A DNA stretch of 55,876 nt from an uncultured Mycobacterium sp. (GCA_964196535.1 CAXMUG010000083.1:1-55876), one strand, 5' to 3'. Shown: positions 1,294 through 38,655, counted from the first letter of the stretch. Translations and numbers: made by a program. Notes: generated from the sequence alone by a model not told the origin.

Positions 1294-4200
1294 ATGGGCA
1301 TTATTAATTTTTCAATCAAAAATCCTCTGGTTGTTAATTTATTTTTGATTCTTGTTGTAGTGCTAGGTGTCATTTCTTGGCGCAGTATGCCGCAAGAAAT
1401 GTTTCCAGTGGTCGAGATCGATAAGGTTCGTATCAGCACAGAATTTGAAGGCGCGCCACCTGAAGAAGTTGAGTCACAAGTTACTATTCCTATTGAAGAT
1501 GAGTTGGATTTACTCGCAGACATTGATGTCGTTACTTCAGAGAGTAATGAAGGAATTTCTAAAATTGTTATTGATCTTAAACCCGACACAAATGTTGATG
1601 AGTTTGTGCGTGACTTGCGTTCCACTGTAGATGCGATAACCGATCTTCCAGAAGAATCAGAAAGGCCTACTATCACGCGGTTAAAAACCCGCTTTCCTGT
1701 AATTAGTCTAAGTGTATATGGAGACGTATCAACGGGAACATTGGTGAAAACTGCTAAAGATATTAAAAGTCGATTGCAGCAATTAGACGGGGTTGCCAGT
1801 GTCAGTATTGCTGGCGAACGCGAATGGGAATTATGGGTGGTGGTGGATCCATTTGTTATGTCTGCACGTAATGTGTCATTAACCGCTATCACTTCTGCAT
1901 TACGTAATAACCTTAGAGACTTGCCAGGGGGGTCGCTTAAAGCATCAGAAGGGGATATTTTGCTGCGCGGCAAAGGTGCTGCACAAAATATTGAAGCTAC
2001 GAAAAAAATCGTTTTACGCAATGATCTTAATGGCGGACAGCTTGTATTGGGTGAGGTTGCAGATGTGCAGCTAAGGTTGGAGGAAACCAAAACCTTGGGG
2101 CGTTTCAATAATAAGCCTTCTGTGAATCTTACAATTACAAAAACTGCAAAGGCTTCAACAATCGAAGTATCCAAGTTAACTCGTGAACTTGCAGAACAAA
2201 TACAACAAGAGCTTCCTCCCGGCATCAAAGTTGGTTTATTTAGTGACTTATCTATTTATGTGAAGACTCGATTAGAGACCTTAAAGTCATCTGGGGCAGT
2301 GGGATTAGTACTGGTCTTGTTATCTTTGTATTTATTCTTAAATTTCAGAGTGGCTGCGATTACAGCGATGGGTATTCCGGTTTCATTCTTGGTGGCCGTG
2401 ACCATCATTTATTACCTTGGTTACACTATAAATATGGTGTCCATGTTTGCATTTTTAATTGCCTTGGGAATGATAGTAGATGATGCCATTATCGTTACCG
2501 AGAATACGTATCGTCATATGGAAGAAGGTATGGCCGCAGTACCGGCGGCAAAGATTGGCGCGAGCGAGGTATTCTGGCCGGTAATGGCTTCAACTTGCAC
2601 TACGGTTGCAGCTTTTTTGCCAATGTTTGGCGTGTCAGGAACCTTGGGTTTGTTTATACAGGTTATCCCGGTAGTGGTTACAGCATCCTTGGTTGGGTCA
2701 TTATTAGAGGCCTTTATCGTTTTGCCTTCTCATTCTGCAGAAATGCTGCGCTTAGCTAAACATAAAAAGCGCAGCAGAATTAATTGGCAAAAGTGGTTAG
2801 AAAAATATATTGCTGTGGTGAAATATGCCTTGCGAAATCGGTATTTCATTTCTGCGGTTACTATTGGCGTGTTAAGTGTTGTGTTGGCATTTGCGAAAAC
2901 GCATATGCCATACAATCAATTCGGTGATGTGGAGATTGGACAATTTCTGGTAAACGTGGAAGCCCCAAATACCTATAGCATTGAAGATACCACGGAGCTT
3001 GCAATTGAAATCGAACAGCGCATGGATAAAATATTTCAAGAAAATGAGCTGGATACACTATTAACTAATGTAGGTGTGACACTAATAGATTTTAATCGTT
3101 TAAAACTTGGCAGTAATTACATTCAATTTGTAGTTGATCTAAAAAAACCAAAACCAAAAGGTTTGGTTGAAAAATTTGTGAGTCCTTTAGTGAATATGCG
3201 CTTTACAGCGCAAGGCGTGCGAGATCGAAGCACTGAAGTTATATTAAGTGATGTTAGAGAAAGTGTTGCTTCGATACCTGGCATTCAGCGCTTTTCTATT
3301 TTGCGCCCACAAGGCGGTCCAGCAGGTTCAGATATAGAAGTAGGTATTGTTGGTAAAGAAACTGAAAAGTTACTTAGTTTATCGGGCGAAGTGGTTACAT
3401 TTTTACGCCGTGTGCCGGGAGTGCGGGATGTACGACAGGATTTAGAGCCCGGTAAACTAGAATATCAATACACTATAAATGCGCGCGGTAGAGAGTTAGG
3501 TCTTACGCAAACGCAAATAGCCGACGCAGTGCGTACAGGTTACTTGGGTTTGGAAGTTATGCAAGTAAATTGGAAATCAGACCGTTATCCGGTACGGGTA
3601 ATTTACCCAGAGTCGATTCGTAAAGATGGCGCGGGCTTAAGTCGATTGCCGATTACATTAGAAAGTGGCGGAACAGTTTATTTAGGTGAAATAGCCAATA
3701 TTGAATTAGGGCGTGGACTTGGTGCAGTTCAACGGCGAGACTCAAAACGTTTGTCGCTTATCACGGCAGAGGTGGATAAGGACGTCATAACACCATTAGA
3801 GGTTACCGAACTTTTGGGTCAGGAATTTAAATCAATAAGTGATGATCACTTTGGTTATTCACTATTATTTTTAGGTGAGAAGAAAGAAGCTCAAGATTCA
3901 TTCAATGATATCGGTAAAATGTTGGTGATTGCTTTAGCAGTGATATTTTTTATTTTAGCGGCATTATTCAAATCCTTGCTTGATCCATTTGTAATCATGT
4001 TTGCGATACCTTTCGCAATTGTAGGTGTGATTGTTGGGCATATGCTGTTCGGTTATAACTTGCAGTTTTTATCCATGATAGGGTTTCTTGCCTTGACGGG
4101 AATTGTAGTGAATGACTCGTTGATTCTGATTGATTTTGCTAAAAAGAAAATAGCGGATGGAGCAGATTGTTTTGATGCGTTAGTTGAAGCAGGGCGAGTA

Positions 4201-6058: not shown

Positions 6059-6382
6059 GTGATCAAATTCCTGAATGTCTGTATAAATGAGTAGATGTTC
6101 CTGATTAGCTAAATAATTGTATAGCTAGTCGGGAATCGCAGAGCCAAGTGAAAATAAGGCGTTATGTTTGGGCTCAAGCTTGTCAGCTTTGATAATGCTT
6201 ATTCGTATAATAATAAAAGGATTTATTAAATAATAATGTTATTTTCTGCTGAACCTGCTTTATTCATTCAAAGCGCGATGATTTTTTCCGTGATTATTGC
6301 TGCTTCAATTACGATGGTTAAAAAGCTCATAAGAGTTTTTGTTTAAATGCCTGCTTCGGGTCGTTAGCAGTCATTGCTTTGT

Positions 6383-6672: not shown

Positions 6673-6820
6673 ATCCTGAATATCTGCTTTGGGTCGATTG
6701 AAATTTGCTCCTCGGCAACTGCTCCTGCCTCCATGCAGTCGTGTAATTTCTGCACTTCCACCATCCATGGTGGTCGTAATTGGACATTCTTGGTTCATTA
6801 AAAGTTACTAATTCTAATCC
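6673..6820 (-). ncRNA. Candidate Csr/Rsm-family GGA-repeat RNA, or a CsrA-controlled leader of the ABM gene (locus A)
   Basis: By my count the minus strand carries 7 GGA in about 148 nt. Two of them sit in hairpin loops: CCACCAUGGAUGGUGG (6773..6758) and CUGCAUGGAGGCAG (6738..6725). The module is related to the one at 29085-29345. Confidence 0.4.
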
Positions 6821-27736: not shown

Positions 27737-28084
27737 AGAATATTAGAAAACTATCATTGGCCAGGAAATATCCGAGAATCACAACATGTCATCACAAGAG
27801 CTGCAATTCTTTCTACTGGTAAAAAGCTACAATTAGATCCAGCACATTTTCAAACAGAAACCGAAGAAAAAAGTGAAAGCACAAAATCAACTAAGACTTT
27901 ACCAGAGTCTAAATTCTTAACGATTAATGAATTTAAGCAGCTTGAAAAAGAAAACATCATTGCTGCTTTAAAGCATAGTGGTTGGCGTGTATCTGGTAAA
28001 AGTGGAGCTGCAGACTTATTAGGTATTAAACCCACAACACTTGCACATCAAATGAAAAAATTAAAAATACAGAAGCCTGAATAA
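27737..28084 (+). pseudogene. C-terminal fragment of a sigma-54-dependent (NtrC-family) transcriptional activator
   Basis: The frame reads ...ILENYHWPGNIRESQHVITRAAILS...AADLLGIKPTTLAHQMKKLKIQKPE*. That is the end of the AAA+ domain plus the Fis-type HTH. There is no Walker A/B motif, GAFTGA loop, receiver domain or start codon. Confidence 0.75.
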
Positions 28085-28170
28085 CTGCTAACGAACCAAA
28101 GCGGACATTAGGCGCAGCACTTAAACATATTTTAAATAATAACTTGGGTTAAATACCTATAAAATAAGAT

Positions 28171-29025
28171 ATGAATATAAAATCAAAAGAGCAAGTTGGG
28201 ACCGTACAATCCATCTGGCAATATGCCGTAAAATCCATGAATGGCGTGAAATTGGAAAAAGCTGAATTCACTGATGGCGGTATACTAGGGGATCGTAGCT
28301 ATGCATTAATAGACCAATCAAATCAAAAAGTCGCAAGTGCTAAATTTCCTAAAAAATGGGCTAAGTTACTTGAGTTAAATGCGGCTTTTGTTAAACAACC
28401 CAGCCAAAGTGACCAGCTCCCTGCTGTCCGGATTACCTCAGCATGTGGGCTTGATTTTTTAAGTACCGATAAAAATGCAGATGAGTTGCTTTCTGACTAT
28501 GTAGGTCGAGTAGTAAAGTTGACCTCGTCACGACCTAATTCTGTAAGTTTAGAACGCCTAGACCCACTTGAAACAGACGAAACCCTTTTAGATATCGGCG
28601 ATTTGATGCTGAAAAATAAATTCTCAGACTATGCGGACATACACTTATTAACTACAGCAAGTCTCCAACAACTTTCGAGCTTATCATCAGATGTACAATT
28701 TGATGAACGGAGGTTCCGTCCAAATTTAGTAATTGAGACAGATCTAGGTGTTACAGGATTCGCTGAAAATGATTGGGTTGGGAAAACAGTTGTTGTCGGT
28801 GATAGCATTCGTTTTAATATTACAGATCCCACCCCTCGATGTTCAATACCAACATTAAGTAACGGCACATTTCCTAAAGACCCTAAAGTGTTAAAAACAA
28901 TTGTTGACCACAATATGCTAGAAGTTCCATTGCTCGAAAACAAAACGCTACCATGCACTGGTATTTATGGCTTTTTAATACAAAGTGGAGTTGTTTCTAT
29001 TAATGATCCTGTTTGGATTGAATAA
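28171..29025 (+). CDS. MOSC domain-containing protein (N-terminal beta-barrel plus MOSC)
   Basis: The 284-aa ORF has the conserved MOSC region with the invariant Cys (RFRPNLVIE...DPTPRCSIPT). Confidence 0.85.
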   Translation: MNIKSKEQVGTVQSIWQYAVKSMNGVKLEKAEFTDGGILGDRSYALIDQSNQKVASAKFPKKWAKLLELNAAFVKQPSQSDQLPAVRITSACGLDFLSTDKNADELLSDYVGRVVKLTSSRPNSVSLERLDPLETDETLLDIGDLMLKNKFSDYADIHLLTTASLQQLSSLSSDVQFDERRFRPNLVIETDLGVTGFAENDWVGKTVVVGDSIRFNITDPTPRCSIPTLSNGTFPKDPKVLKTIVDHNMLEVPLLENKTLPCTGIYGFLIQSGVVSINDPVWIE

Positions 29026-29084
29026 TTATCAAATGGCCGTTATTGGTCGAGAGCGGATATTAAGTTTAAGAGTCTAATTAGTTG

Positions 29085-29345
29085 CATCATCCCTGATGTG
29101 CCTCATATTCGCATATCCCTATGCACTCTAATTGGTTGATAGTAGACATTAGGGAAATAAAAGATTTAATCTGATGCAACATTCTTGTTGTAACTCAGAC
29201 TCGCACGGTCGCTCCCGACTCACTAGAAATTGCATCCACCATCCATGACGGTCGTCCTGTCTCCTGCGACACTTGTGCGCCCTTGTCAACAGCTCCTGCG
29301 TTGCTCTACCACCTACATCCATGTAGTCGCGCCCATCGTTCATGT
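29085..29345 (-). ncRNA. Candidate Csr/Rsm-family GGA-repeat RNA (locus B), immediately 3' of argE
   Basis: By my count the minus strand carries 9 GGA in about 260 nt. Four sit in hairpin loops: CUACAUGGAUGUAG (29326..29313), CCGUCAUGGAUGGUGG (29251..29236), GCAUAGGGAUAUGC (29124..29111) and CAUCAGGGAUGAUG (29098..29085). Confidence 0.45.
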
Positions 29346-29347
29346 TT

Positions 29348-30523
29348 TCACTTTACGCAAACCTCGTGAATAACGTTTTGCAGTAAATCTATTGTTGGCT
29401 TGATCGAATCCAATGATAAGAATTCATTTTGTTGATGGGCTTGGTCTATTGAGCCAGGCCCAAGTACAACGGTTTCCATGCCCATTGCATTAAAGTAAGG
29501 GCCTTCGGTTCCGAAAGCAACGGTTGTGGGTTTCTTATTGCTCAATTGTTTGGTGAGTTGAATAATCTTTGAGTTTTCGTCTGTCTCAAAAGCAGGCACA
29601 CCATCAAATAAAGCTTCAAATTCAACTCTTAAACCTAGTGGTTCAGTTATTTTTGTAACTCGCTCATAAAGTTCTTCTCTAAGAGTATCAATTTGCATAC
29701 CAGGCAAAGGGCGCAGATCGATATGTAATTCGCAATCCCCGCAAATTCTATTGGGGTTGTCGCCACCATGAATGTGTCCAAGGTTTAATGTGGGAATCGG
29801 TACAACAAAATCATGATTGATGTATTTATTGGCTAGTTCTTGTTTGAATTGTTCAAGTTCGTTGAGTACAACGCGCATGCCTTCCAATGCATTGTTGCCT
29901 AAGCTGGGGTCACTAGAGTGCCCGGCTTGACCATGAATTTTGATGGCTTCCATCATTACACCTTTGTGTTGGTGTATGGGGGTTAAGTCGGTTGGTTCTC
30001 CAATGATGCAATACTTGCCAAGCTTTTGACCTTTAGTCTCCAATGTTTGGGCTAAAGTTTTTGCGCCTTGCATAGTAGATTCTTCATCCGCTGTGGCAAT
30101 GATGGTCAGGCGTTGCTTTAAATCTTCATTGGTAAATTCTTTTGCTGCTTCGATAGCGATGGCCAAGAAAGACTTCATGTCAGCCGTGCCAAGTCCAAAT
30201 ATTTTTTCGTCTATTTGCGTGGCCTTGTATGGATCGGTATTCCAGCCTGTTTGGTCAAAGTTTACGGTGTCGGTATGGCCGGATAACACTAAGCCATCAT
30301 CGCCTTTACCTATGCTGGCAATTAAATTTACTTTAGGATTGTTAGAATTTGGCGAGTCAGAATTAGCAACAATTTCAGTTTGGAAGCCTAGGTCATTTAG
30401 CCAATTGGCTAGACAGTTAATGACAGGCTGATTACTAGTATCAATTTCAGCTTGGGTGCTGCTGACTGAGGGAAGGGCAATTAACTGCTCGATCATCTCC
30501 AGCAGTTTGGGTGTAGCCTTCAT
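29348..30523 (-). CDS. argE: Acetylornithine deacetylase (M20 peptidase family)
   Basis: The 391-aa ORF has M20 metal-binding motifs (LSGHTDTV, ATADEES, GEPT). It begins 12 nt downstream of mtdA. Confidence 0.88.
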   Translation of the reverse strand: MKATPKLLEMIEQLIALPSVSSTQAEIDTSNQPVINCLANWLNDLGFQTEIVANSDSPNSNNPKVNLIASIGKGDDGLVLSGHTDTVNFDQTGWNTDPYKATQIDEKIFGLGTADMKSFLAIAIEAAKEFTNEDLKQRLTIIATADEESTMQGAKTLAQTLETKGQKLGKYCIIGEPTDLTPIHQHKGVMMEAIKIHGQAGHSSDPSLGNNALEGMRVVLNELEQFKQELANKYINHDFVVPIPTLNLGHIHGGDNPNRICGDCELHIDLRPLPGMQIDTLREELYERVTKITEPLGLRVEFEALFDGVPAFETDENSKIIQLTKQLSNKKPTTVAFGTEGPYFNAMGMETVVLGPGSIDQAHQQNEFLSLDSIKPTIDLLQNVIHEVCVK

Positions 30524-30535
30524 AAGTGTTGTTGT

Positions 30536-31393
30536 TTAAGCCATGCCTTGGGCAATTTTGTATATCGCTTCTGCATCCAATGCAATATCGTTGGATTCAA
30601 ATAGTTTGGCAATGCATGCACGGTGCAGTTTTAGTTTTAGTGCGCCAATGCCGATGCCACCAAACACTCGCTTACCATAGCGTTCAGTGTCTTTATCCAT
30701 CACATCGATGCCTTCAAAACCTAGGATCTTAGATGTACCTACATCAGCAATGAGTTCTAAGGTGGGATGGTCTTGCCACTGTTTAGCATTGAGTAATTGT
30801 ATTCCCGCTTTTGCAGCACCAAACACTACATGGGCGCCATCCATTGCAGCTTGTATTGATTCATCATCACTGGCTTGCATAGGTGTCATTTCAACGCCAA
30901 AGCGCTCGTGCATTTCATCACAGGCTTCTACTGAGCGGGACTGCTTGCGGGAAGTAAGTCGAACATTCGCGCCACTAATGGCCAGTAGCACCGCTGCACG
31001 TTGTCCTACTGGGCCGGTGCCAGCAAGCACTACTGCAGTTTTACCTTGTATATTGGTCGCTTTGCTTAAGAGCGCAACGCCTGCCGCTGATGTGGTATTA
31101 CAACCATTGCTATCTAACATTATCGATACACGGAAGTTTTGAAAAAACTGATCGTGTACTAATTGAAAAAGTTTTTGACCTTCAATTAAATCACTGCCTC
31201 CAACAAAGATTGCAGTATTCTTTTTATATTTTGGAGCGCGCGTATAGACTGCACCTTCAACAAGGCCGCCACAATTTTCTTCATTGACGCCACCTAATTG
31301 AGTAACATGATCGGCGCCACCATCGTAGGCGACTACTGAATCAAATACGCTAGGTATAGCGTCGGTATCAAAATGGTATAAAAGTTTTTTCAT
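30536..31393 (-). CDS. mtdA: NADP-dependent methylene-tetrahydrofolate / methylene-tetrahydromethanopterin dehydrogenase
   Basis: The 285-aa ORF is near-colinear with MtdA of Methylobacterium as I recall it (FDTDAIPSVFDSVVAYDGGADH..., MLDSNGCNTTSAAGVAL, LKLKLHRACIAKLFES). Confidence 0.88.
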   Translation of the reverse strand: MKKLLYHFDTDAIPSVFDSVVAYDGGADHVTQLGGVNEENCGGLVEGAVYTRAPKYKKNTAIFVGGSDLIEGQKLFQLVHDQFFQNFRVSIMLDSNGCNTTSAAGVALLSKATNIQGKTAVVLAGTGPVGQRAAVLLAISGANVRLTSRKQSRSVEACDEMHERFGVEMTPMQASDDESIQAAMDGAHVVFGAAKAGIQLLNAKQWQDHPTLELIADVGTSKILGFEGIDVMDKDTERYGKRVFGGIGIGALKLKLHRACIAKLFESNDIALDAEAIYKIAQGMA

Positions 31394-31450
31394 GTCTATT
31401 ATTTTAGGTCTTATTATTTTTAGTTTTTAAAAAGTAATTAGCCAAAGCTA

Positions 31451-34225
31451 TTACCCAGTACTGCCTATCCCCGCTGCTACGCAGTTAATGGATAATAATA
31501 ATGGAACTAATACGTCTTCTATGTTTTGGGTCTCATCGCCTTCACTACGAAACTTCTTCACTAGTTCTACCTGTTCAATGCCCACTTGGTTGAGTGCTTC
31601 GATGCGTCGATAGAAGTGGCGTTTATAATTAGGAAAACGATCACAAAGCTGATCTTCACCGGTAATTTTTAATATATTTTTCGTTGTCAGTTCATATTCT
31701 TCTTTAATATCAGAGAATATCTGAGTTCGATGTTCTTCGTTAGTAACTAGTTCGCAATACTTCTCAGCAACTTCCATGTCTACTAGCAAAAGTGTTTTTT
31801 CAGCACCGTCTAATATTAATCTAAACAGTGGGTGCTTCTCGTACATCTTGTTAAGAAGTTCTGTACCGAGTTCGCCACGTATTTTGATGATTTGTTCTAG
31901 GCTACTGCCTACTCCATACCAGCCTGGTACGAGAAGTCGATTCTGTGTCCATGCAAATACCCAAGGTATTGCGCGCAGATCATCTAGTGAAGCTGCACCA
32001 AAACGCCGTGCCGGTCTTGAGCCTATTTTCATAAGCGTAAGCTCTTCAACTGGACTGGCTTGCTGATAAAAGTCGACTAAACCTGGATGCTCGATTAATT
32101 TTCTGTAAGCGACATAGGCAGTTCCAGACAGTGCTTCAAGCGCTTCGTCTAATTCGGAATTGGTTTGGTAGGCTGGATCTTTGCCAGACATCAGTGAGTG
32201 AGTGATGACACTAGAGGCTAAAATTTCCATCTGTTCTTCAGCAAATCCACGGTTGGCGTATTTGTATGAAACCACTTCGCCTTGCTCAGTAACCCGCATA
32301 CGTCCATCAATGGTGCCAACCGGCTGTGCTGCTATAGCACGACCACTCGGTGCACCACCACGACTAACCGAGCCGCCACGACCATGGAAAAATGAAATCG
32401 GCACTTTATGTTTTTCGCCGGCTGCATGAATTTCTGATTGAGCCTTGCTGATGATCCAGTTAGAGGTGAGAAAGCCACCATCTTTGTTAGAATCTGAATA
32501 ACCCACCATGACTTCTTGGGAGCCACCGAATTTTTTAATTGTGCGTCGAACAAAGGCATGCTCTAAAAGCTCTGTTAAAACGCCTGGGCCGTTTTCAAGA
32601 TCATCAATGGTTTCTAGTAGTGGCACAATCATAATGCGACAAGCTTCTAGTCCATCAGAATCAGTAAATAGTCCTACATATTTCGCTAATAGATATACAC
32701 CCAAAACATCTGTGGCAGTTTTCGTCATACTCAATACGCATACGCCAAATGATTTTCGGTCTAGCTTGTTTTGGAAGTATTTAACTTGTTCGAGCATGGC
32801 TAAAGTAGACTGTGCTTGTTTAGATAAATTATCGAAACGAGGGACCACACGTAATGGTTGCGTTAATTGATCAACAATCCAGTTGTTCCATTCTTGAGAT
32901 GTAGGATCAGGCACATCTATATGAGTTTTTTGGTGCAATGCTTGCCATATCTCTGCTAGCACACTATTGACTACCGTAGTATTTTCGCGAATGTCTAGGC
33001 TGACCGTTCTAAAGCCAAAGGTATCCACCATGTGTCGCAATGGACGTACATCTGCATCGCTTAAGTGCCCACACTTAGCATCCGCCAAGCCTTGTTCAAG
33101 ATGACTGAGATCCGTAGATAAATCTGCTGCACGATGATAGGCAATTTTTGATTTACTTGGGTCATTAAGATTCCTTAAAGTCGCATCAATTCTGGTCAAC
33201 ATATAACGCAGGTATTGTCTAAACACTTCACCTGGATTACGTTGTGAATAGGCTTCTGTTTCGCCCAACATTTCTAGTTTGTCTTTTAATACTTTTGTAA
33301 AGCTTTCTGATACGTCTACAGAATGGTTCGCAATACTTAGTTTAGAACCAAGCTCAAAAATATCTTGTCGATAACGTTTTATGCATGCTTTGGCATTCGT
33401 TTGTATCGCGGATGCAGTAACTTTATGCGTGACATTTGGATTTCCGTCACGGTCTCCGCCAATCCATGACCCAAAGCGGAAAATAGGGGGCACTTTAAAT
33501 TCATAATGTGGGTAGGCTTGTTCTAATGCGCGATCCAGTTCTACATACAGTTCTTTTACACCATCAAATAATGATTCAACAAAAAAGTGCAATCCCCATG
33601 TTACTTCTTGTCCAACACTAGGTTTTTCTAAACGAATTTCACCCGTTAACCAAAGTAAATCAATTTCGTTGCGTAGTTCATTAGCTAAGTCATCTCTTTC
33701 TCTAGGGGTCCAGCGCTTTAGTTCTAACTGTTTAAGTAGTACATAGATTCGACGATGCACCTCTAATACGGTTACGCGTTTCGCTTCTGTTGGGTGTGCG
33801 GTGATTACAGGGCTGATTAAGCTGTTATCTAATAAGGTTTGTATATCTTCTGCAGAAATACCTTTTTGCTCAGCGCTTGAGAAGGAATATGCAAAAGTGC
33901 CAGGCACACGGTCACGATTATATTCTTTTTCAATTTGACGACGTTGCCGCACCATTGCATTTTGTTCTGCAATGCTTAATAGCTGGAACCATATTCCATA
34001 GGTTTGCAGGACATATAGAATTTTTGAGGCAGGGCAGTCGCGAATATCTTGCTTGCCGTTAAAATAAGCTTCGATATCTGGTTGACGCGCACGAATAACA
34101 CTTAGCAATTGTTGATAAAGCAGCTCTACTAATTCATCTTCATAGGATGCCGCAGGATTGATAATCATACTGCCGGTGGCAACTTTGGTAAGTTGTGTCC
34201 AGGAAAGTGGCGAGGTATCGGTCAT
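31451..34225 (-). CDS. ppc: Phosphoenolpyruvate carboxylase
   Basis: The 924-aa ORF has PEPC signatures (VITAHPTEAKR, VMVGYSDSNKDGG, FHGRGGSVSRGG) and a C-terminal ...GSTG. Confidence 0.95.
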   Translation of the reverse strand: MTDTSPLSWTQLTKVATGSMIINPAASYEDELVELLYQQLLSVIRARQPDIEAYFNGKQDIRDCPASKILYVLQTYGIWFQLLSIAEQNAMVRQRRQIEKEYNRDRVPGTFAYSFSSAEQKGISAEDIQTLLDNSLISPVITAHPTEAKRVTVLEVHRRIYVLLKQLELKRWTPRERDDLANELRNEIDLLWLTGEIRLEKPSVGQEVTWGLHFFVESLFDGVKELYVELDRALEQAYPHYEFKVPPIFRFGSWIGGDRDGNPNVTHKVTASAIQTNAKACIKRYRQDIFELGSKLSIANHSVDVSESFTKVLKDKLEMLGETEAYSQRNPGEVFRQYLRYMLTRIDATLRNLNDPSKSKIAYHRAADLSTDLSHLEQGLADAKCGHLSDADVRPLRHMVDTFGFRTVSLDIRENTTVVNSVLAEIWQALHQKTHIDVPDPTSQEWNNWIVDQLTQPLRVVPRFDNLSKQAQSTLAMLEQVKYFQNKLDRKSFGVCVLSMTKTATDVLGVYLLAKYVGLFTDSDGLEACRIMIVPLLETIDDLENGPGVLTELLEHAFVRRTIKKFGGSQEVMVGYSDSNKDGGFLTSNWIISKAQSEIHAAGEKHKVPISFFHGRGGSVSRGGAPSGRAIAAQPVGTIDGRMRVTEQGEVVSYKYANRGFAEEQMEILASSVITHSLMSGKDPAYQTNSELDEALEALSGTAYVAYRKLIEHPGLVDFYQQASPVEELTLMKIGSRPARRFGAASLDDLRAIPWVFAWTQNRLLVPGWYGVGSSLEQIIKIRGELGTELLNKMYEKHPLFRLILDGAEKTLLLVDMEVAEKYCELVTNEEHRTQIFSDIKEEYELTTKNILKITGEDQLCDRFPNYKRHFYRRIEALNQVGIEQVELVKKFRSEGDETQNIEDVLVPLLLSINCVAAGIGSTG

Positions 34226-34261
34226 ACTAGTTTTAGTTTATTAATATTAAGCTGCGCATAG

Positions 34262-34288
34262 TAAAAGAGGTCCGCTAAGGACCTCTTT
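34262..34288 (-). terminator. Stem-loop with a short U-tract between hprA and ppc (probable partial terminator or attenuator)
   Basis: The minus-strand RNA reads AAGAGGUCC-UUAGC-GGACCUCUU-UUAC. The 9-bp stem sits only about 36 nt upstream of the ppc ATG. Confidence 0.55.
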
Positions 34289-34378
34289 ATAATAGGGTTG
34301 ATTAAGCCAATTTGATATGCCCGAATAGGCATAGATATGCTATTTCAGGACCCATTTCTGGGCTTAATTAAGATCGCT

Positions 34379-35350
34379 CTAAACGAGCTTGTCTTTCGGA
34401 GTTTCGCCAGCTTCAAATGCTGCTAGATTCTCAAGAACTCGATTACCCATAGCCACACGTGTCTCGATAGAGGCGCTGCCAAGGTGAGGTAGTAGAACTG
34501 CATTCTCCAGCTCAAGGAAACGCTCATCTAATGCTGGTTCGCCTTCAAACACATCCAGACCAGCACCTGCAATCACGCCATTTTTAAGTGCGTCAATTAA
34601 TGCATCATTATCAACCACATCACCACGAGCTGAGTTTATTAAAAACGCAGAGGGCTTCATTTTCGCGAGACTTTCTTTATTTAATAAATGGTAAGTATCT
34701 TTGCCGCCTGGACAGTGAATAGAAACAAAGTCTGAGTTCGCTAAAACTTCATCAATGGAATCTACTTGCTGTGCATTGTATTTCTTGATCACGTCAGCCG
34801 GAGGCGGGTATGGATCAGAAAAGATGATTTTCATACCAAAACCATGATGCGCACGTTGTGCCATGGCTTGCGCAATACGGCCCATGCCGATTAAGCCTAA
34901 GGTCTTGCCAGTAACTTTAGAAGCTAGTAAGTGAGTAGGGCGCCAGCCGGCCCATGACTTTGAGCGTAGTTCTCTTTCACCTTCACTGGTGCGACGTGCA
35001 ACGGTTAACATTAATGTCATTGCGATGTCAGCTGTGCAATCAGTTAATACTTCTGGTGTGTTCGTTACCGTTAAGCCGCGTGCTTTAGCAGCATCTAAGT
35101 CAATGTGGTTAAAACCTACGCCAAAGTTACCAATGAATTTTGCACGTAATGGTTCTGCGCTTAATACTTCAGCATCGATTGGATCAGTTACAGTTGGCAA
35201 AAATGCATCACAGTTAGCCAATGCTTCTTTCATTTCGTCTTTGCTCATAGCCACGTCATTTTCATTCAACGTTACGTCATACTTTTCTCGCAACGTAGCT
35301 TGAACTTCTTCTGGCCAGGCGCGTGAAACGATTACTTTTAATTTGCTCAT
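34379..35350 (-). CDS. hprA: Hydroxypyruvate reductase / glycerate dehydrogenase (D-2-hydroxyacid dehydrogenase family)
   Basis: The 323-aa ORF has an NAD-binding motif (GLIGMGRIAQAM) and a catalytic R/E/H context (NSARGDVVD...PHLGSAS). It lies within the serine-cycle gene block. Confidence 0.82.
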   Translation of the reverse strand: MSKLKVIVSRAWPEEVQATLREKYDVTLNENDVAMSKDEMKEALANCDAFLPTVTDPIDAEVLSAEPLRAKFIGNFGVGFNHIDLDAAKARGLTVTNTPEVLTDCTADIAMTLMLTVARRTSEGERELRSKSWAGWRPTHLLASKVTGKTLGLIGMGRIAQAMAQRAHHGFGMKIIFSDPYPPPADVIKKYNAQQVDSIDEVLANSDFVSIHCPGGKDTYHLLNKESLAKMKPSAFLINSARGDVVDNDALIDALKNGVIAGAGLDVFEGEPALDERFLELENAVLLPHLGSASIETRVAMGNRVLENLAAFEAGETPKDKLV

Positions 35351-35375
35351 TATTATTTTCTCCTACAAGCTTCAA

Positions 35376-36266
35376 CTACGAGATGTCTTTCATTACTCTT
35401 TCCATCGTTGAGCCAAGCTCTGATGGATTCGGTGCAACAATGACACCTGCTTCTTCAAGCATTTGTACTTTTTCTGCAGCACTTTCACCAACACCAGAAA
35501 CAATCGCGCCTGCGTGACCCATGCGTCGACCTTTCGGTGCAGTTAGACCTGCAATGTAAGCAACTAATGGTTTAGTCATGTGCTTTTTAAAGAATTCAGC
35601 CGCTTCCGCTTCTTGCGGACCACCGATTTCACCAATCATCATCACTGCTTTGGTTTCAGGATCGGCTTCAAATAACTCTAAGATATCCTTATGAGAACTA
35701 CCGTTGATTGGGTCGCCACCAATGCCAATACTGGTGCTAATACCTATGCCTAATGCTTTCATTTGCGATGCAGCTTCATAGCCGAGTGTTCCTGAACGCG
35801 CTACTACACCAACGTTACCTTTCTGATAAATATGGCCAGGCATGATGCCTAGTAAGCATTTTTCAGGGCTGATGCTACCTGCACAGTTAGGGCCCGTTAG
35901 GCGCATACGGTCTTCTTTTTTGTAGCGATACATATAACGTTTAACACGCATCATGTCTTGCGCAGGAATTCCATCAGTGATGGAAACACAAGTTTTAATC
36001 CCTCCATCGGCAGCTTCCATAATTCCATCTGCAGCATAGGCACCTGGAACAAATACAATACTCGTTTCGGCACCGGTGCTTGCAACGGCATCTTTCACAG
36101 TATTAAACACAGGTAAACCCATGTGTGTTTGACCACCTTTACCTGGGGTAACACCACCAACCACTTTGGTACCGTACTCAATCATTTCTTCCGCGTGGAA
36201 AGTTCCGATTTTGCCGGTAAAGCCTTGAACAAGAACTTTAGTATTTTCATCAATCATTATTGTCAT
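35376..36266 (-). CDS. mtkB: Malate thiokinase (malate-CoA ligase) alpha/small subunit
   Basis: The ORF is SucD-like (VVARSGTLGYEA, phospho-His motif MGHAGAIVSG). I assign it to malate thiokinase because of its context next to mclA, sgaA and hprA. Confidence 0.82.
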   Translation of the reverse strand: MTIMIDENTKVLVQGFTGKIGTFHAEEMIEYGTKVVGGVTPGKGGQTHMGLPVFNTVKDAVASTGAETSIVFVPGAYAADGIMEAADGGIKTCVSITDGIPAQDMMRVKRYMYRYKKEDRMRLTGPNCAGSISPEKCLLGIMPGHIYQKGNVGVVARSGTLGYEAASQMKALGIGISTSIGIGGDPINGSSHKDILELFEADPETKAVMMIGEIGGPQEAEAAEFFKKHMTKPLVAYIAGLTAPKGRRMGHAGAIVSGVGESAAEKVQMLEEAGVIVAPNPSELGSTMERVMKDIS

Positions 36267-36277
36267 TTTATTTCTCC

Positions 36278-37453
36278 CTAACCTTTTGCAACACGGTTGC
36301 GTTCGGTCACTGCTTTTTCTGCAGCTTCGTCCAAGGTGTCTGCTGTAATGAGTGGTTGACCGCTGTCTTTTAGTATTTGCATACCTTTTTCAACATTGGT
36401 GCCGGATAGTCGTACGATAACCGGTACTTTTACGTCTAACTTTTCGAATGCATGAACAACACCTTCTGCAATCCAATCGCAACGGTTAATACCAGCAAAG
36501 ATATTAACTAATATGGCTTTTACCTTTTCATCATCAAGTACTAGCTTAAATGCACTCGTAACACGCTCTGGAGAAGCGCCACCACCGATATCTAAGAAGT
36601 TGGCAGGTTCGCCGCCCTTGTGTTTGATCATGTCCATGGTGGCCATAGCAAGGCCGGCACCATTAATCATGCAACCGATATCGCCATCTAAGCCTACATA
36701 GCTTAAGCCACGATCTGATGCTGAGGTTTCGCGTGGATCTTCTTGTGATTTATCACGAAGTTCTGCGATACGTGGACGACGGAATAGAGCGTTGTCATCA
36801 AAACCCATTTTGGCGTCAAGTGCCAGAACACGGTCATCTTTTGTGATAACCATTGGGTTGATTTCAACCATTGTGGCATCGTAATCACGAAATGCGCGGT
36901 AAGCGCCTTTGATTGTGTGAACAGCGTGGCTAATAAGCTCAGGTTTAATGCCTAATGCGAAAGCAAGCTCGCGAGCTTGGAAGTCACGTAAGCCTACTGC
37001 AGGTTCGACTTCTAATTTATGAATGGCTTCAGGTTTCGTTGCTGCAACTTCTTCGATATCCATGCCACCTTCGGTTGAGGTAACAAATACAACACGCTGC
37101 TTATCGCGATCTAGAACGAGTGCTAAGTAAAGCTCTTTTAAAATATCGGTAGCTTGTTCAACATAAAGTCGATATACCACTTTGCCTGCTGGCCCAGTTT
37201 GGTGAGTAACCAAGCGTTTGCCTAATAATTCGTCCGCAGCATTCCAAATTTCTTCATCATTGCTGCAAAGCTTAATGCCGCCCGCTTTACCGCGTGCGCC
37301 AGAATGAATTTGTGCTTTGATGGCCCATTTACTGCCACCAATTTCTTTTGCACGGTAAACAGCTTGCTCAGGACTATATGCTAGCCCACCCTCTGCAATG
37401 CCTACACCGCACTCGGATAATATTTCTTTCGCTTGATACTCATGGATATCCAC
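36278..37453 (-). CDS. mtkA: Malate thiokinase (malate-CoA ligase) beta/large subunit
   Basis: The ORF is a SucC-like ATP-grasp protein that strongly resembles MtkA as I recall it ([10 protein letters not shown]..., [37 protein letters not shown]). It uses a GTG start with GGGAGGG upstream. Confidence 0.85.
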
Positions 37454-37598
37454 TTAAATTCCCTCCCGAGAAAATGATTCGTTTTTATCTTATTGGCTTA
37501 ATCTTGGAGGTCGCCTTATAGGTCGTTGGAGTTTCGGCAGACCAAACGACTTTTATAGCCTATTCTGAACCCTCAGGACAAACTCTCTTGTTGGGTAA

Positions 37599-37617
37599 TT
37601 GCTCAATTCATGAGCAA
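37599..37617. promoter_or_regulatory. Inverted repeat TTGCTCA-N5-TGAGCAA upstream of mtkA (candidate operator)
   Basis: The two 7-bp arms are perfect reverse complements. The repeat lies about 150 nt upstream of the mtkA start and downstream of the mclA terminator. Confidence 0.3.
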
Positions 37618-37651
37618 TAAGGTAGGGCAAAAATAGAAATTCTGAAAGGTA

Positions 37652-37680
37652 GAAACAAAAGTGCCCGCAAAGCGGGCACT
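37652..37680 (-). terminator. Rho-independent terminator after mclA
   Basis: The minus-strand RNA reads GUGCCCGC-UUU-GCGGGCAC followed by UUUUGUUUCU. Confidence 0.8.
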
Positions 37681-37713
37681 AATAACATCAGTAAAAGTTA
37701 GGTATTTCTAACT

Positions 37714-38655
37714 TTAAGATTTCGCAGCAATTGCTTCAGCAGCTCGAACAACGTTCTCCGCCATTTTTGCAGAAGCCGCGTCGATCATCTTGCCATCCAA
37801 TGATGCAGCACCTTTGCCTTCTTTTGCAGCCTTGTCTAATTCTTCAAGGATACGGTGCGCTTTGGTTACTTCAGCTTCAGGTGGCGAGAAAACTTCGTTT
37901 GCCAACTCGATCTGGTTAGGGTGAATTGCCCATTTGCCTTCACAACCTAATGCAGCAGCACGGCGTGCACCGAGCAGGTAACCATCAGGATCACTGAAAT
38001 CACCAAATGGACCGTCGATAGGACGTAAGCCATAGGCGCGACAAGCAACCGTCATGCGTGAAATCGCAGCATGCCATTGATCACCCGGGTAATCAGGGTT
38101 TAAGCCACCGATGTTGGTAGTGCGTGCGCGATTACTCGCTGCATAATCCGCAACACCGAAGTGCATGGCTTCCATGCGTGGGCTTGAAGTAGCAATCGCT
38201 TCTACGTTTGCCATGCCCAATGCAGTTTCAATTAAAGCTTCAAGACCGATTTTATCTTCCAGTCCCATTGCTTCTTCGATTTGAGTAACCATGGCATCAA
38301 CCATATACACGTCACCCGTAGTTCCTACTTTAGGAATTAGTATGGTGTCTAGATTAGCGCCTGCTTGTTCGCAAACATCTACTACATCACGATACATGTA
38401 GTGAGTATCTAAACCGTTGATTCGAACCGATACGGTTTTACCGTTACCTTTCCAATCATGATTATTTAATGCTTCGATTACATTTTTGCGAGCTTGAACT
38501 TTGTCGTCAGGAGCTACGGCGTCTTCCAAGTCTAAAAATACATAGTCAGCCGCACAGGTTACGGCCTTTTCCATCATTTTAGGATTAGAACCAGGAACCG
38601 CTAGCTCACAACGTTGCACGCGTTGGCGTGCAGGTTTGTATAGAGTAAAACTCAT
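37714..38655 (-). CDS. mclA: Malyl-CoA lyase (HpcH/HpaI/CitE-like)
   Basis: The 313-aa ORF has an N-terminus (MSFTL...CELAVPGSNPKMMEKA...FLDLEDAVAPDDK) that matches Mcl as I recall it. It starts 12 nt downstream of sgaA. Confidence 0.88.
   Translation of the reverse strand: MSFTLYKPARQRVQRCELAVPGSNPKMMEKAVTCAADYVFLDLEDAVAPDDKVQARKNVIEALNNHDWKGNGKTVSVRINGLDTHYMYRDVVDVCEQAGANLDTILIPKVGTTGDVYMVDAMVTQIEEAMGLEDKIGLEALIETALGMANVEAIATSSPRMEAMHFGVADYAASNRARTTNIGGLNPDYPGDQWHAAISRMTVACRAYGLRPIDGPFGDFSDPDGYLLGARRAAALGCEGKWAIHPNQIELANEVFSPPEAEVTKAHRILEELDKAAKEGKGAASLDGKMIDAASAKMAENVVRAAEAIAAKS

Follow-up and report, generated by a model that had tools for sequence, protein, structure and literature searches.

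The question raised by this locus is what fills the gap between argE and the gene for a MOSC protein in the 55,876-nt stretch of DNA analysed here (CAXMUG010000083.1, the whole of which is called the window), where an earlier note had proposed a CsrB/RsmY/RsmZ-like RNA gene with GGA triplets in hairpin loops. Instead of such a discrete gene, the argE-MOSC gap was found to hold two head-to-tail copies, one long (29346-29121) and one short (29124-29031), of a lineage-specific multi-copy intergenic repeat which occurs in a clade of uncultured marine gammaproteobacteria. The repeat is dispersed and modular, its hairpins covary and mostly carry GGA loops in a CsrA-consensus context, it is placed at stop codons, and it has undergone local expansion. 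The gap, which had rightly been described as not featureless, is plainly something more than a usual spacer between genes, and any functional claim has its basis in the motif and the covariation, both observed in uncultured organisms. Coordinates are those of the window and the element is read on the minus strand; the argE stop codon TGA is at 29350-29348 (-), the first hairpin of the element begins at 29346, directly after the stop as had been noted before, and the convergent MOSC gene ends at 29025, leaving a gap of 322 nt.

A dispersed modular repeat

The basic unit of the repeat is about 95 nt long and consists of a hairpin (Ha) with an NGGA loop, the linker GAAUAWGAG, a second hairpin (H4) with an NGGA loop, the linker CAGAUUAA with an A/U-rich stretch, and a palindrome of about 30 nt, AATGTCCGCT-N10-AGCGGACATT, which resembles repetitive extragenic palindromes (REP). 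Long forms keep the outer Ha stem (GCAC/GUGC) with a branched core in place of the loop, and have extra GGA hairpins upstream. The parts of the two copies in the window, together with two lone palindromes, are as follows.

29348..29350 (-), argE stop codon TGA; the repeat begins 2 nt downstream
29121..29346 (-), long-form copy, by alignment with L010, L003, L006, L009, L011 and L022; nhmmer match 29204-29125, covariance model match 29208-29119
29332..29346 (-), H1 hairpin AACAU-GAACG-AUGGG; relatives have CACAU-GGACG-AUGUG, the GGA being mutated to GAA in the window
29312..29329 (-), X1 module CGA-CUACA-UGGA-UGUAG-G, by alignment with relatives
29287..29303 (-), X2 hairpin CAACG-CAGGAGC-UGUUG, a fifth loop-presented GGA, absent from the list in the earlier note
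29203..29278 (-), core domain, by alifold; 5' strand GCAC-AA-GUGUCGC pairs with 3' strand GCGAC-C-GUGC
29236..29254 (-), X3 module CGA-CCGUCA-UGGA-UGGUGG, an insertion; nearest paralog 6758-6776
29177..29190 (-), H4 of the long copy, CAACA-AGAA-UGUUG; GGA lost, L010 having AGGA in the same hairpin
29121..29150 (-), degenerate REP-like palindrome at the end of the long copy
29031..29124 (-), short-form copy; nhmmer match 29112-29032 (E = 1.5e-17), covariance model R1 match 29116-29030 (75.9 bits)
29124-29111 (-), Ha of the short copy, GCAUA-GGGA-UAUGC
29110-29102 (-), linker GAAUAUGAG of the short copy
29098-29085 (-), H4 of the short copy, CAUCA-GGGA-UGAUG
29081-29072 (-), linker CUAAUUAGAC of the short copy
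29061-29031 (-), REP-like palindrome of the short copy
28080..28109 (no strand assigned), lone REP-like palindrome upstream of the MOSC gene
6346..6375 (no strand assigned), lone REP-like palindrome just after the stop of an ABM-domain gene

The long copy runs in the order H1, X1, X2, branched core containing X3, linker GAGUCUGAG, H4, linker CAGAUUAAAUC and degenerate palindrome, and is the most expanded among the copies examined. Its core helices enclose a hairpin, H3 (GAC-AGGA...GUC), the loop of which is enlarged by X3 in the window; among the aligned long forms X3 was present at this position only in the window, while X1 and X2 are common to the window, L010 and L055 (collected loci are given by their L numbers). 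Both CAUGGAUG hairpins, X1 and X3, are optional insertions. The short copy contains two GGA placed 26 nt apart, start to start, and has homologous short forms in L065, L055, L059, L022, L049 and L072.

Related loci were gathered through argE homologs of 79-95% identity. The same blocks follow directly after the argE stop in seven lineages (L010, L003/4/5, L006/7/8, L009, L011, L051 and L022), namely ACAUGGACGAUG, GCACAAGUGYCG, GCGACCGURCGAAUAAGAG, a hairpin, CAGAUUAA and the palindrome AAUGUCCGCU-N10-AGCGGACAUU. The genes downstream differ among the argE lineages and, where one was called just downstream (L003, L006, L009, L065), it was convergent. In L065, the argE of which is 88% identical, argE is followed by the short form only, which reads GUACA-GGGA-UGUAC, AAAUAAGAG, AAAUCA-UGGA-UGAUUU, CAGAUUAA and palindrome. 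An empty site follows argE in the lineages L064 and L066, where the flanks are much diverged. A single conserved structured RNA of the riboswitch kind was considered after the first orthologs and then rejected, because the core is dispensable, as the L065 short form indicates, and the unit is multi-copy.

When metagenome contigs were scanned for exact matches to the core pattern GTCGNNAGCGACCGTRCGARTNNG, 17 stretches were returned. Eight were genuine copies, some of them after unrelated genes and two on one 2.65-Mb contig; the other nine were discarded as chance matches in unrelated GC-rich DNA (L047, L048, L050, L053, L056, L057, L058, L061) or as coding sequence. A search of 605-783 kb of collected loci with a profile of the 3' half and a covariance model (R1) gave 20 full 3' modules, which include clusters of three in the 6.5-kb L055 and two in the 1.1-kb L059, convergent pairs in L049 and L022, and the tandem modules of the window (29208-29119 and 29116-29030 by covariance model). 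Full units were located in no fewer than 10 different gene contexts, in related metagenome-assembled genomes and metagenome contigs, and often there are several within a few kb (L055, L059, L072). Loci which had been collected through the unrelated ABM gene contained two copies (L072), one decayed copy (L068) or the palindrome alone (L070). The earlier note had named the recurrence of one hairpin unit at many loci and in both orientations as the sign of a DNA repeat and, in substance, this is what was found.

The palindrome by itself is commoner than the full unit, with about five examples in the 2.7-kb L062 in addition to 6346-6375 and 28080-28109 of the window. In all it was located at four sites of the window (29031-29061, 29121-29150, 28080-28109 and 6346-6375), and further sites were identified in L003, L009, L010, L006, L065 and L070. 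The lone form, AATGNCYGCT-N10-AGCRGNCATT, stands at gene ends, and in L062 (900-2290) the roughly five examples lie between small open reading frames (ORFs). In L049 (460-607) copies on opposite strands share one central palindrome, giving a large imperfect inverted repeat, REPIN-like, between convergent genes. Of the two copies on the 2.65-Mb contig WLWD01000004.1, the second, a long one (L062), is more similar in sequence than the argE-linked one (L054) to the copy which follows argE in L006, a likeness which hints at exchange or conversion between copies. Terminal inverted repeats were not found in two short copies and the window locus, an inverted-repeat search yielding internal hairpins only.

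With respect to genes, the repeat follows, with its 5' end 0-10 nt beyond the stop, several ORFs on its own strand, namely argE, those for an RDD, a DUF4197 and a YkuD-like protein, and four unnamed ones, and in three contexts the stop TGA falls inside the UGAG of the element. The copies in the two convergent pairs all run in the sense of their respective genes, as do those in two co-directional contexts. Two copies are placed between divergent genes with no same-strand ORF ahead of them (L059/L052, and L072 at 3225-3290), and these would need a promoter of their own.

GGA hairpins, covariation and the CsrA consensus

Between 29085 and 29345 there are nine GGA triplets on the minus strand and one on the plus strand. 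This is the top count among all 261-nt stretches on both strands of the window (mean 2.2-2.4), so that the count given in the earlier note is right and its expectation of about three agrees with the window mean. The patch is G/A-rich, however, with 48-59% GC vs 41% for the window, and its own composition predicts 6.7 GGA; shuffles reached nine at P = 0.16-0.20, and the raw count is thus not significant locally. It is the presentation of GGA in loops, not the number of GGA, which sets the argE-MOSC gap apart. Five hairpins with stems of at least 5 bp and a GGA in the loop were counted in 276 nt vs 0.66 expected in dinucleotide shuffles (maximum four; 0 of 3000 shuffles reached five), and nowhere else on either strand of the window are such hairpins so densely clustered. 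The four GGA hairpins named previously were all located where they had been placed: X1 at 29329-29312, X3 at 29254-29236, Ha at 29124-29111 and H4 at 29098-29085.

Covariation was counted in an alignment of 17 copies. The Ha stem was 96.7% paired with compensatory changes at three of five pairs, and the H4 stem 82% paired with compensatory changes at five of seven (for example U-A to A-U, with a 10:7 split), so that eight of the 12 pairs in the two stems were compensatory. The covariation score was 0.171 vs 0.099 in shuffles, none of 500 of which reached it, and slid controls gave at most 0.073. Judged by this alignment, the Ha and H4 hairpins are kept by compensatory change, in line with the earlier view that the hairpins are conserved features, their NGGA loops being retained. 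At least seven different H4 stems could be read by eye among the copies; the three copies in the 6.5 kb of L055 have three different H4 stems with the hairpin kept in each, which points to selection on structure and not to a recent copying burst. X1 reads CUGCA-UGGA-UGCAG in L010 and L055, a compensatory change of A-U to G-C. The core was paired in 91% of cells across 11 lineages, but since its sequence is almost invariant covariation says little about it, and the palindrome has a conserved sequence which decays instead of covarying. A helix between linker 1 and the U-rich linker 2, taken from an inverted repeat in L065, was rejected, as it was 58% paired and slid controls were equal or better. 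Between the window and L010 the aligned columns of the element showed a similarity of 84.8% vs 73% at the four-fold degenerate sites of argE, with 38 columns being gaps.

By hand count, GGA is kept in seven of eight Ha loops and in 14 of 19 H4 loops, and the loops without it (AGAA, UAGA, GAGA, GGGU, UGAA) differ by one base. The consensus obtained for CsrA by systematic evolution of ligands by exponential enrichment (SELEX) is RUACARGGAUGU, with an invariant ACA and an invariant GGA, the latter placed in the loop of a hairpin (PMC4347634). The L065 copy reads GUACAGGGAUGU, a match at 12 of 12 positions, and most H4 loops fit (A/U)CANGGANG(U/A), which bears out the earlier remark that the loops fit the CsrA/RsmE consensus. 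In short units the paired GGA are 23-30 nt apart. Work by Mercante et al. in 2009 is said to have found that a CsrA dimer bridges two sites 10-63 nt apart, and on the sequences collected here the spacing of the short units is inside that range. A tblastn search with CsrA/RsmA gave no match in the window or in the 783 kb of collected loci; as this covered the window and those loci only, it is uninformative.

Readings of the repeat

CsrA is a global post-transcriptional regulator in Gammaproteobacteria, and its known antagonists are a few dedicated small RNAs (sRNAs) under Gac/BarA-UvrY control. The reading to which we incline, tentatively and with somewhat less than even confidence, is that the repeat is a transcribed cassette of the 3' untranslated region (3' UTR) which would bind CsrA and which was expanded at the argE locus. 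Read-through from the gene upstream, here the ppc-mtdA-argE operon, would transcribe the unit as its 3' UTR; each pair of GGA loops would bind one CsrA dimer, and the terminal palindrome would act as a REP-like barrier at the 3' end. Copies may place their host transcripts under CsrA control, may sequester CsrA where they are carried in abundant transcripts, or may do both, and the two-copy, nine-GGA array of the window could be a CsrA sink of larger capacity on the ppc-mtdA-argE transcript. The terminator scan gave no terminator between argE and the element, which was counted in favour of this reading. Of the two origins offered in the earlier note, the data agree better with the 3' UTR of the ppc-mtdA-argE transcript than with a gene of its own; the link from that transcript to CsrA is one which we infer.

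Several results weigh against the CsrA-binding cassette. We infer CsrA binding from the motif alone, and full-text literature searches on CsrA together with repeat elements or Methylophaga brought up no account of a dispersed repeat that binds CsrA. The folding energy of the whole region is ordinary, with z = -0.55 for the minus and -0.91 for the plus strand. The linkers show about the same degree of conservation as the GGA, and CsrA binding does not account for this. GGA has been lost through single substitutions in five of 19 H4 loops, one of them in the long copy of the window, where H1 has lost it too, and these losses look like decay in part of the repeat family. In the stems, G-U vs A-C pairs numbered 3 vs 6 (Ha and H4) and 5 vs 11 (palindrome), which gives no sign of selection on the sense RNA. 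Finally, only about five of the contexts are informative on orientation, because an insert between compact convergent genes must touch both stops.

If the CsrA-binding cassette is the right reading, a dispersed element abutting stop codons would be a different architecture for the control of free CsrA, or for bringing many genes under CsrA by way of their 3' ends. A further suggestion would be that sponge RNAs originate by expansion of repeat modules, and the transcript of a serine-cycle operon (ppc-mtdA-argE) would be linked to CsrA. A bolder form of the proposal, which seems rather unlikely to us, is that through the repeat tens of genes have acquired high-affinity CsrA sites with dimer spacing in their 3' UTRs, and that these constitute a distributed, mRNA-borne CsrA sink. 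The capacity of such a sink would follow the abundance of the host transcripts and perhaps their translation, as the first hairpin lies within the footprint of the terminating ribosome, and the tandem expansion at argE would be a snapshot of CsrB-like sponge RNAs arising from repeats.

The main rival is that the element is a selfish or neutral DNA repeat of the REP, MITE or ERIC kind, the GGA of which derive from the founder sequence and have no dedicated CsrA function; this is a serious possibility, if a doubtful one. The hairpins would then be kept by machinery acting on DNA (for example a RAYT or a single-strand transposase of the IS200/IS605 type), or because any stable 3' hairpin protects mRNA. 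Much of what was found agrees with this: the repeat is multi-copy and clustered, with tandem and convergent copies which at times have one palindrome in common, the palindrome also stands alone at many sites (the five or so in L062, and 6346-6375 and 28080-28109 in the window), modules are gained and lost between close relatives, and there are decayed copies without GGA. The closer resemblance of the argE-linked copy in L006 to the second copy in L062 than to that of closer argE relatives likewise suggests copy exchange, and both the conserved linkers and the want of a sense-strand G-U excess favour this rival. What such a repeat explains poorly is that two independent hairpins both keep an NGGA loop matching a protein-binding consensus of 10-12 nt, that the three H4 stems of L055 differ with the hairpin kept, that conservation is higher in the element than at four-fold degenerate sites, and that convergent pairs always have the 5' end to the gene. 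Terminal inverted repeats are also missing, and no GTAG head of RAYT-associated REPs could be read from the sequences. Should the DNA repeat be correct, it would be a new composite REP-like family in an uncultured marine clade, and a warning that scans for GGA-hairpin density can pick up repeats.

It is improbable, in our estimate, that the element is a structured 3'-UTR element near the stop codon which has nothing to do with CsrA and which, for example as a hairpin barrier, modulates translation termination, the rescue of ribosomes, the decay of mRNA or the access of Rho, or serves as the platform of another RNA-binding protein. REPs within about 15 nt of stop codons in E. coli reportedly modulate such processes, as described by Liang, Rudd and Deutscher in 2015, and the 5' hairpin of the repeat is 0-10 nt after the stop in at least eight gene contexts, with the stop TGA inside UGAG in three of them. 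The REP-like palindrome at the end and the conserved, single-stranded A/U-rich linkers, for which CsrA gives no explanation, would also be accommodated. Nevertheless, the GGA with ACA...UGU flanks in the loops would be left unexplained, two copies are in divergent regions (L059/L052; L072 3225-3290), and the abutment to stops is partly forced by short spacers.

A stand-alone sRNA gene of the CsrB/RsmY/RsmZ type, controlled by Gac/BarA-UvrY from a promoter of its own inside argE, appears very improbable. The array of GGA hairpins is there, and the two family copies without a preceding same-strand gene need a promoter of their own, but the unit is multi-copy and follows many unrelated genes. As the earlier note had expected (a weak match or none), no Csr/Rsm model of Rfam matched the window at gathering thresholds, the region 28950-29450 at E <= 10 or four related loci at E <= 5, and the permissive scans gave noise only, such as snoRNA and miRNA models. 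The upstream GacA box for which the earlier note had advised a check (TGTAAG-N6-CTTACA) was not found between 29350 and 29650, that is within 300 nt upstream, with up to three mismatches allowed; across the window 18 matches at this tolerance were counted vs 30 expected from shuffles. Nor was a convincing promoter predicted inside argE, the sole sigma-70-like site upstream being 29589-29562, about 215-245 nt inside the gene, and promoter-like sites in the region were no more numerous than in shuffles. No intrinsic terminator (hairpin with U tract) was predicted in 29026-29347, the terminal palindromes having no U tract behind them.

A small protein-coding gene deserves next to no weight: an ATG ORF of 64 aa is present at 29343..29149 (-), overlapping the repeat, and gene callers could annotate it, but it is very likely spurious, since its frame stops after 4 codons in L003 and after 13 in L009 (the latter read by eye) and indels among relatives are not multiples of three.

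Known elements, a second locus and neighbouring sequences

When compared with CsrB, CsrC, RsmX, RsmY and RsmZ, the repeat has in common arrays of short hairpins with GGA loops and flanks of the CsrA/RsmE consensus, hairpins gained and lost as modules from one relative to another, and poorly conserved stem sequence. Those RNAs are, however, single- or few-copy genes, whereas the repeat is dispersed after many unrelated genes, begins at the stop codon usually without its own promoter, and has two sites only in its basic unit; at argE it is without GacA/UvrY box, intrinsic terminator or Rfam match and has a REP-like palindrome at its end. On sequence grounds the element would act like a Csr/Rsm decoy, yet it departs from that family in model match, GacA box, terminator and copy number.

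With REP/BIME and the REPINs of Enterobacteria and Pseudomonas the repeat shares a multi-copy palindrome of about 30 nt, an intergenic location at gene 3' ends, tandem and convergent clusters, and some copies a few nt from stop codons. It differs in that the palindrome is the tail of a larger oriented unit with two more conserved hairpins and linkers, that no GTAG head is visible, and that its loops carry a motif like those bound by proteins. ERIC/IRU, Correia (NEMIS) and MITE-like repeats also have units of about 100-200 nt with variable internal indels and can overlap stop codons, and the co-transcription with flanking genes seen for ERIC/IRU and Correia (NEMIS) would hold for the repeat too; unlike these, it is not a long imperfect palindrome, no terminal inverted repeats were found, and its orientation appears tied to the upstream gene. 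The proposal of a regulatory RNA carried on mRNA resembles the CsrA decoys embedded in mRNAs or 3' UTRs (for example the Salmonella fim leader sponge, and as a class 3'-UTR sRNAs such as NarS/CpxQ), but those are single loci, while the candidate sites here ride on a cassette repeated at many genes.

The earlier note had proposed 6673-6820 as a companion locus. This region lies between the terminator of a H+-PPase gene and the leader of the ABM-domain gene and contains the following feature.

6714..6776 (-), X-type GGA hairpins CGACCACCAUGGAUGGUGG, CGACUGCAUGGAGGCAG and GGCAGGAGCAGUUGCC

Only the optional 'CGAC-stem-CAUGGAUG-stem' modules are shared with the argE element, and the core and 3' module are lacking. 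The hairpins were missing at the same position in relatives with ABM proteins of 74-89% identity, in which only the native UUCAGGAUAA leader motif was common upstream of the ABM gene, and a conserved second sRNA was therefore rejected; by the same token, family modules are gained and lost. Through the X-type hairpins, the leader of the ABM-domain gene could be controlled in the same way as the repeat.

Some minor observations were made around argE. A serine-cycle cluster lies directly upstream on the same strand (window ~29350-38000 (-), as in L001 1-11176), with genes for serine-glyoxylate aminotransferase (sga), malyl-CoA lyase (mcl), malate thiokinase AB (mtkAB), hydroxypyruvate reductase (hpr), phosphoenolpyruvate carboxylase (ppc) and mtdA. 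A different motif, ACRCAGATCGNNNAAAYCAGAAACTTTAGCCY, was present in the first ~60 nt after the argE stop in L017, L018, L022, L029 and L036, mostly lineages without the GGA-hairpin repeat; in L022 it stands ahead of the repeat. Where the repeat is missing, in L013-L016, L064, L066 and L067, a small hydrophobic ORF (MICNNMYWIYIFFG...) follows some 200-400 nt after argE, and in L064, L066 and L067 it was called as a gene of 60-65 aa.

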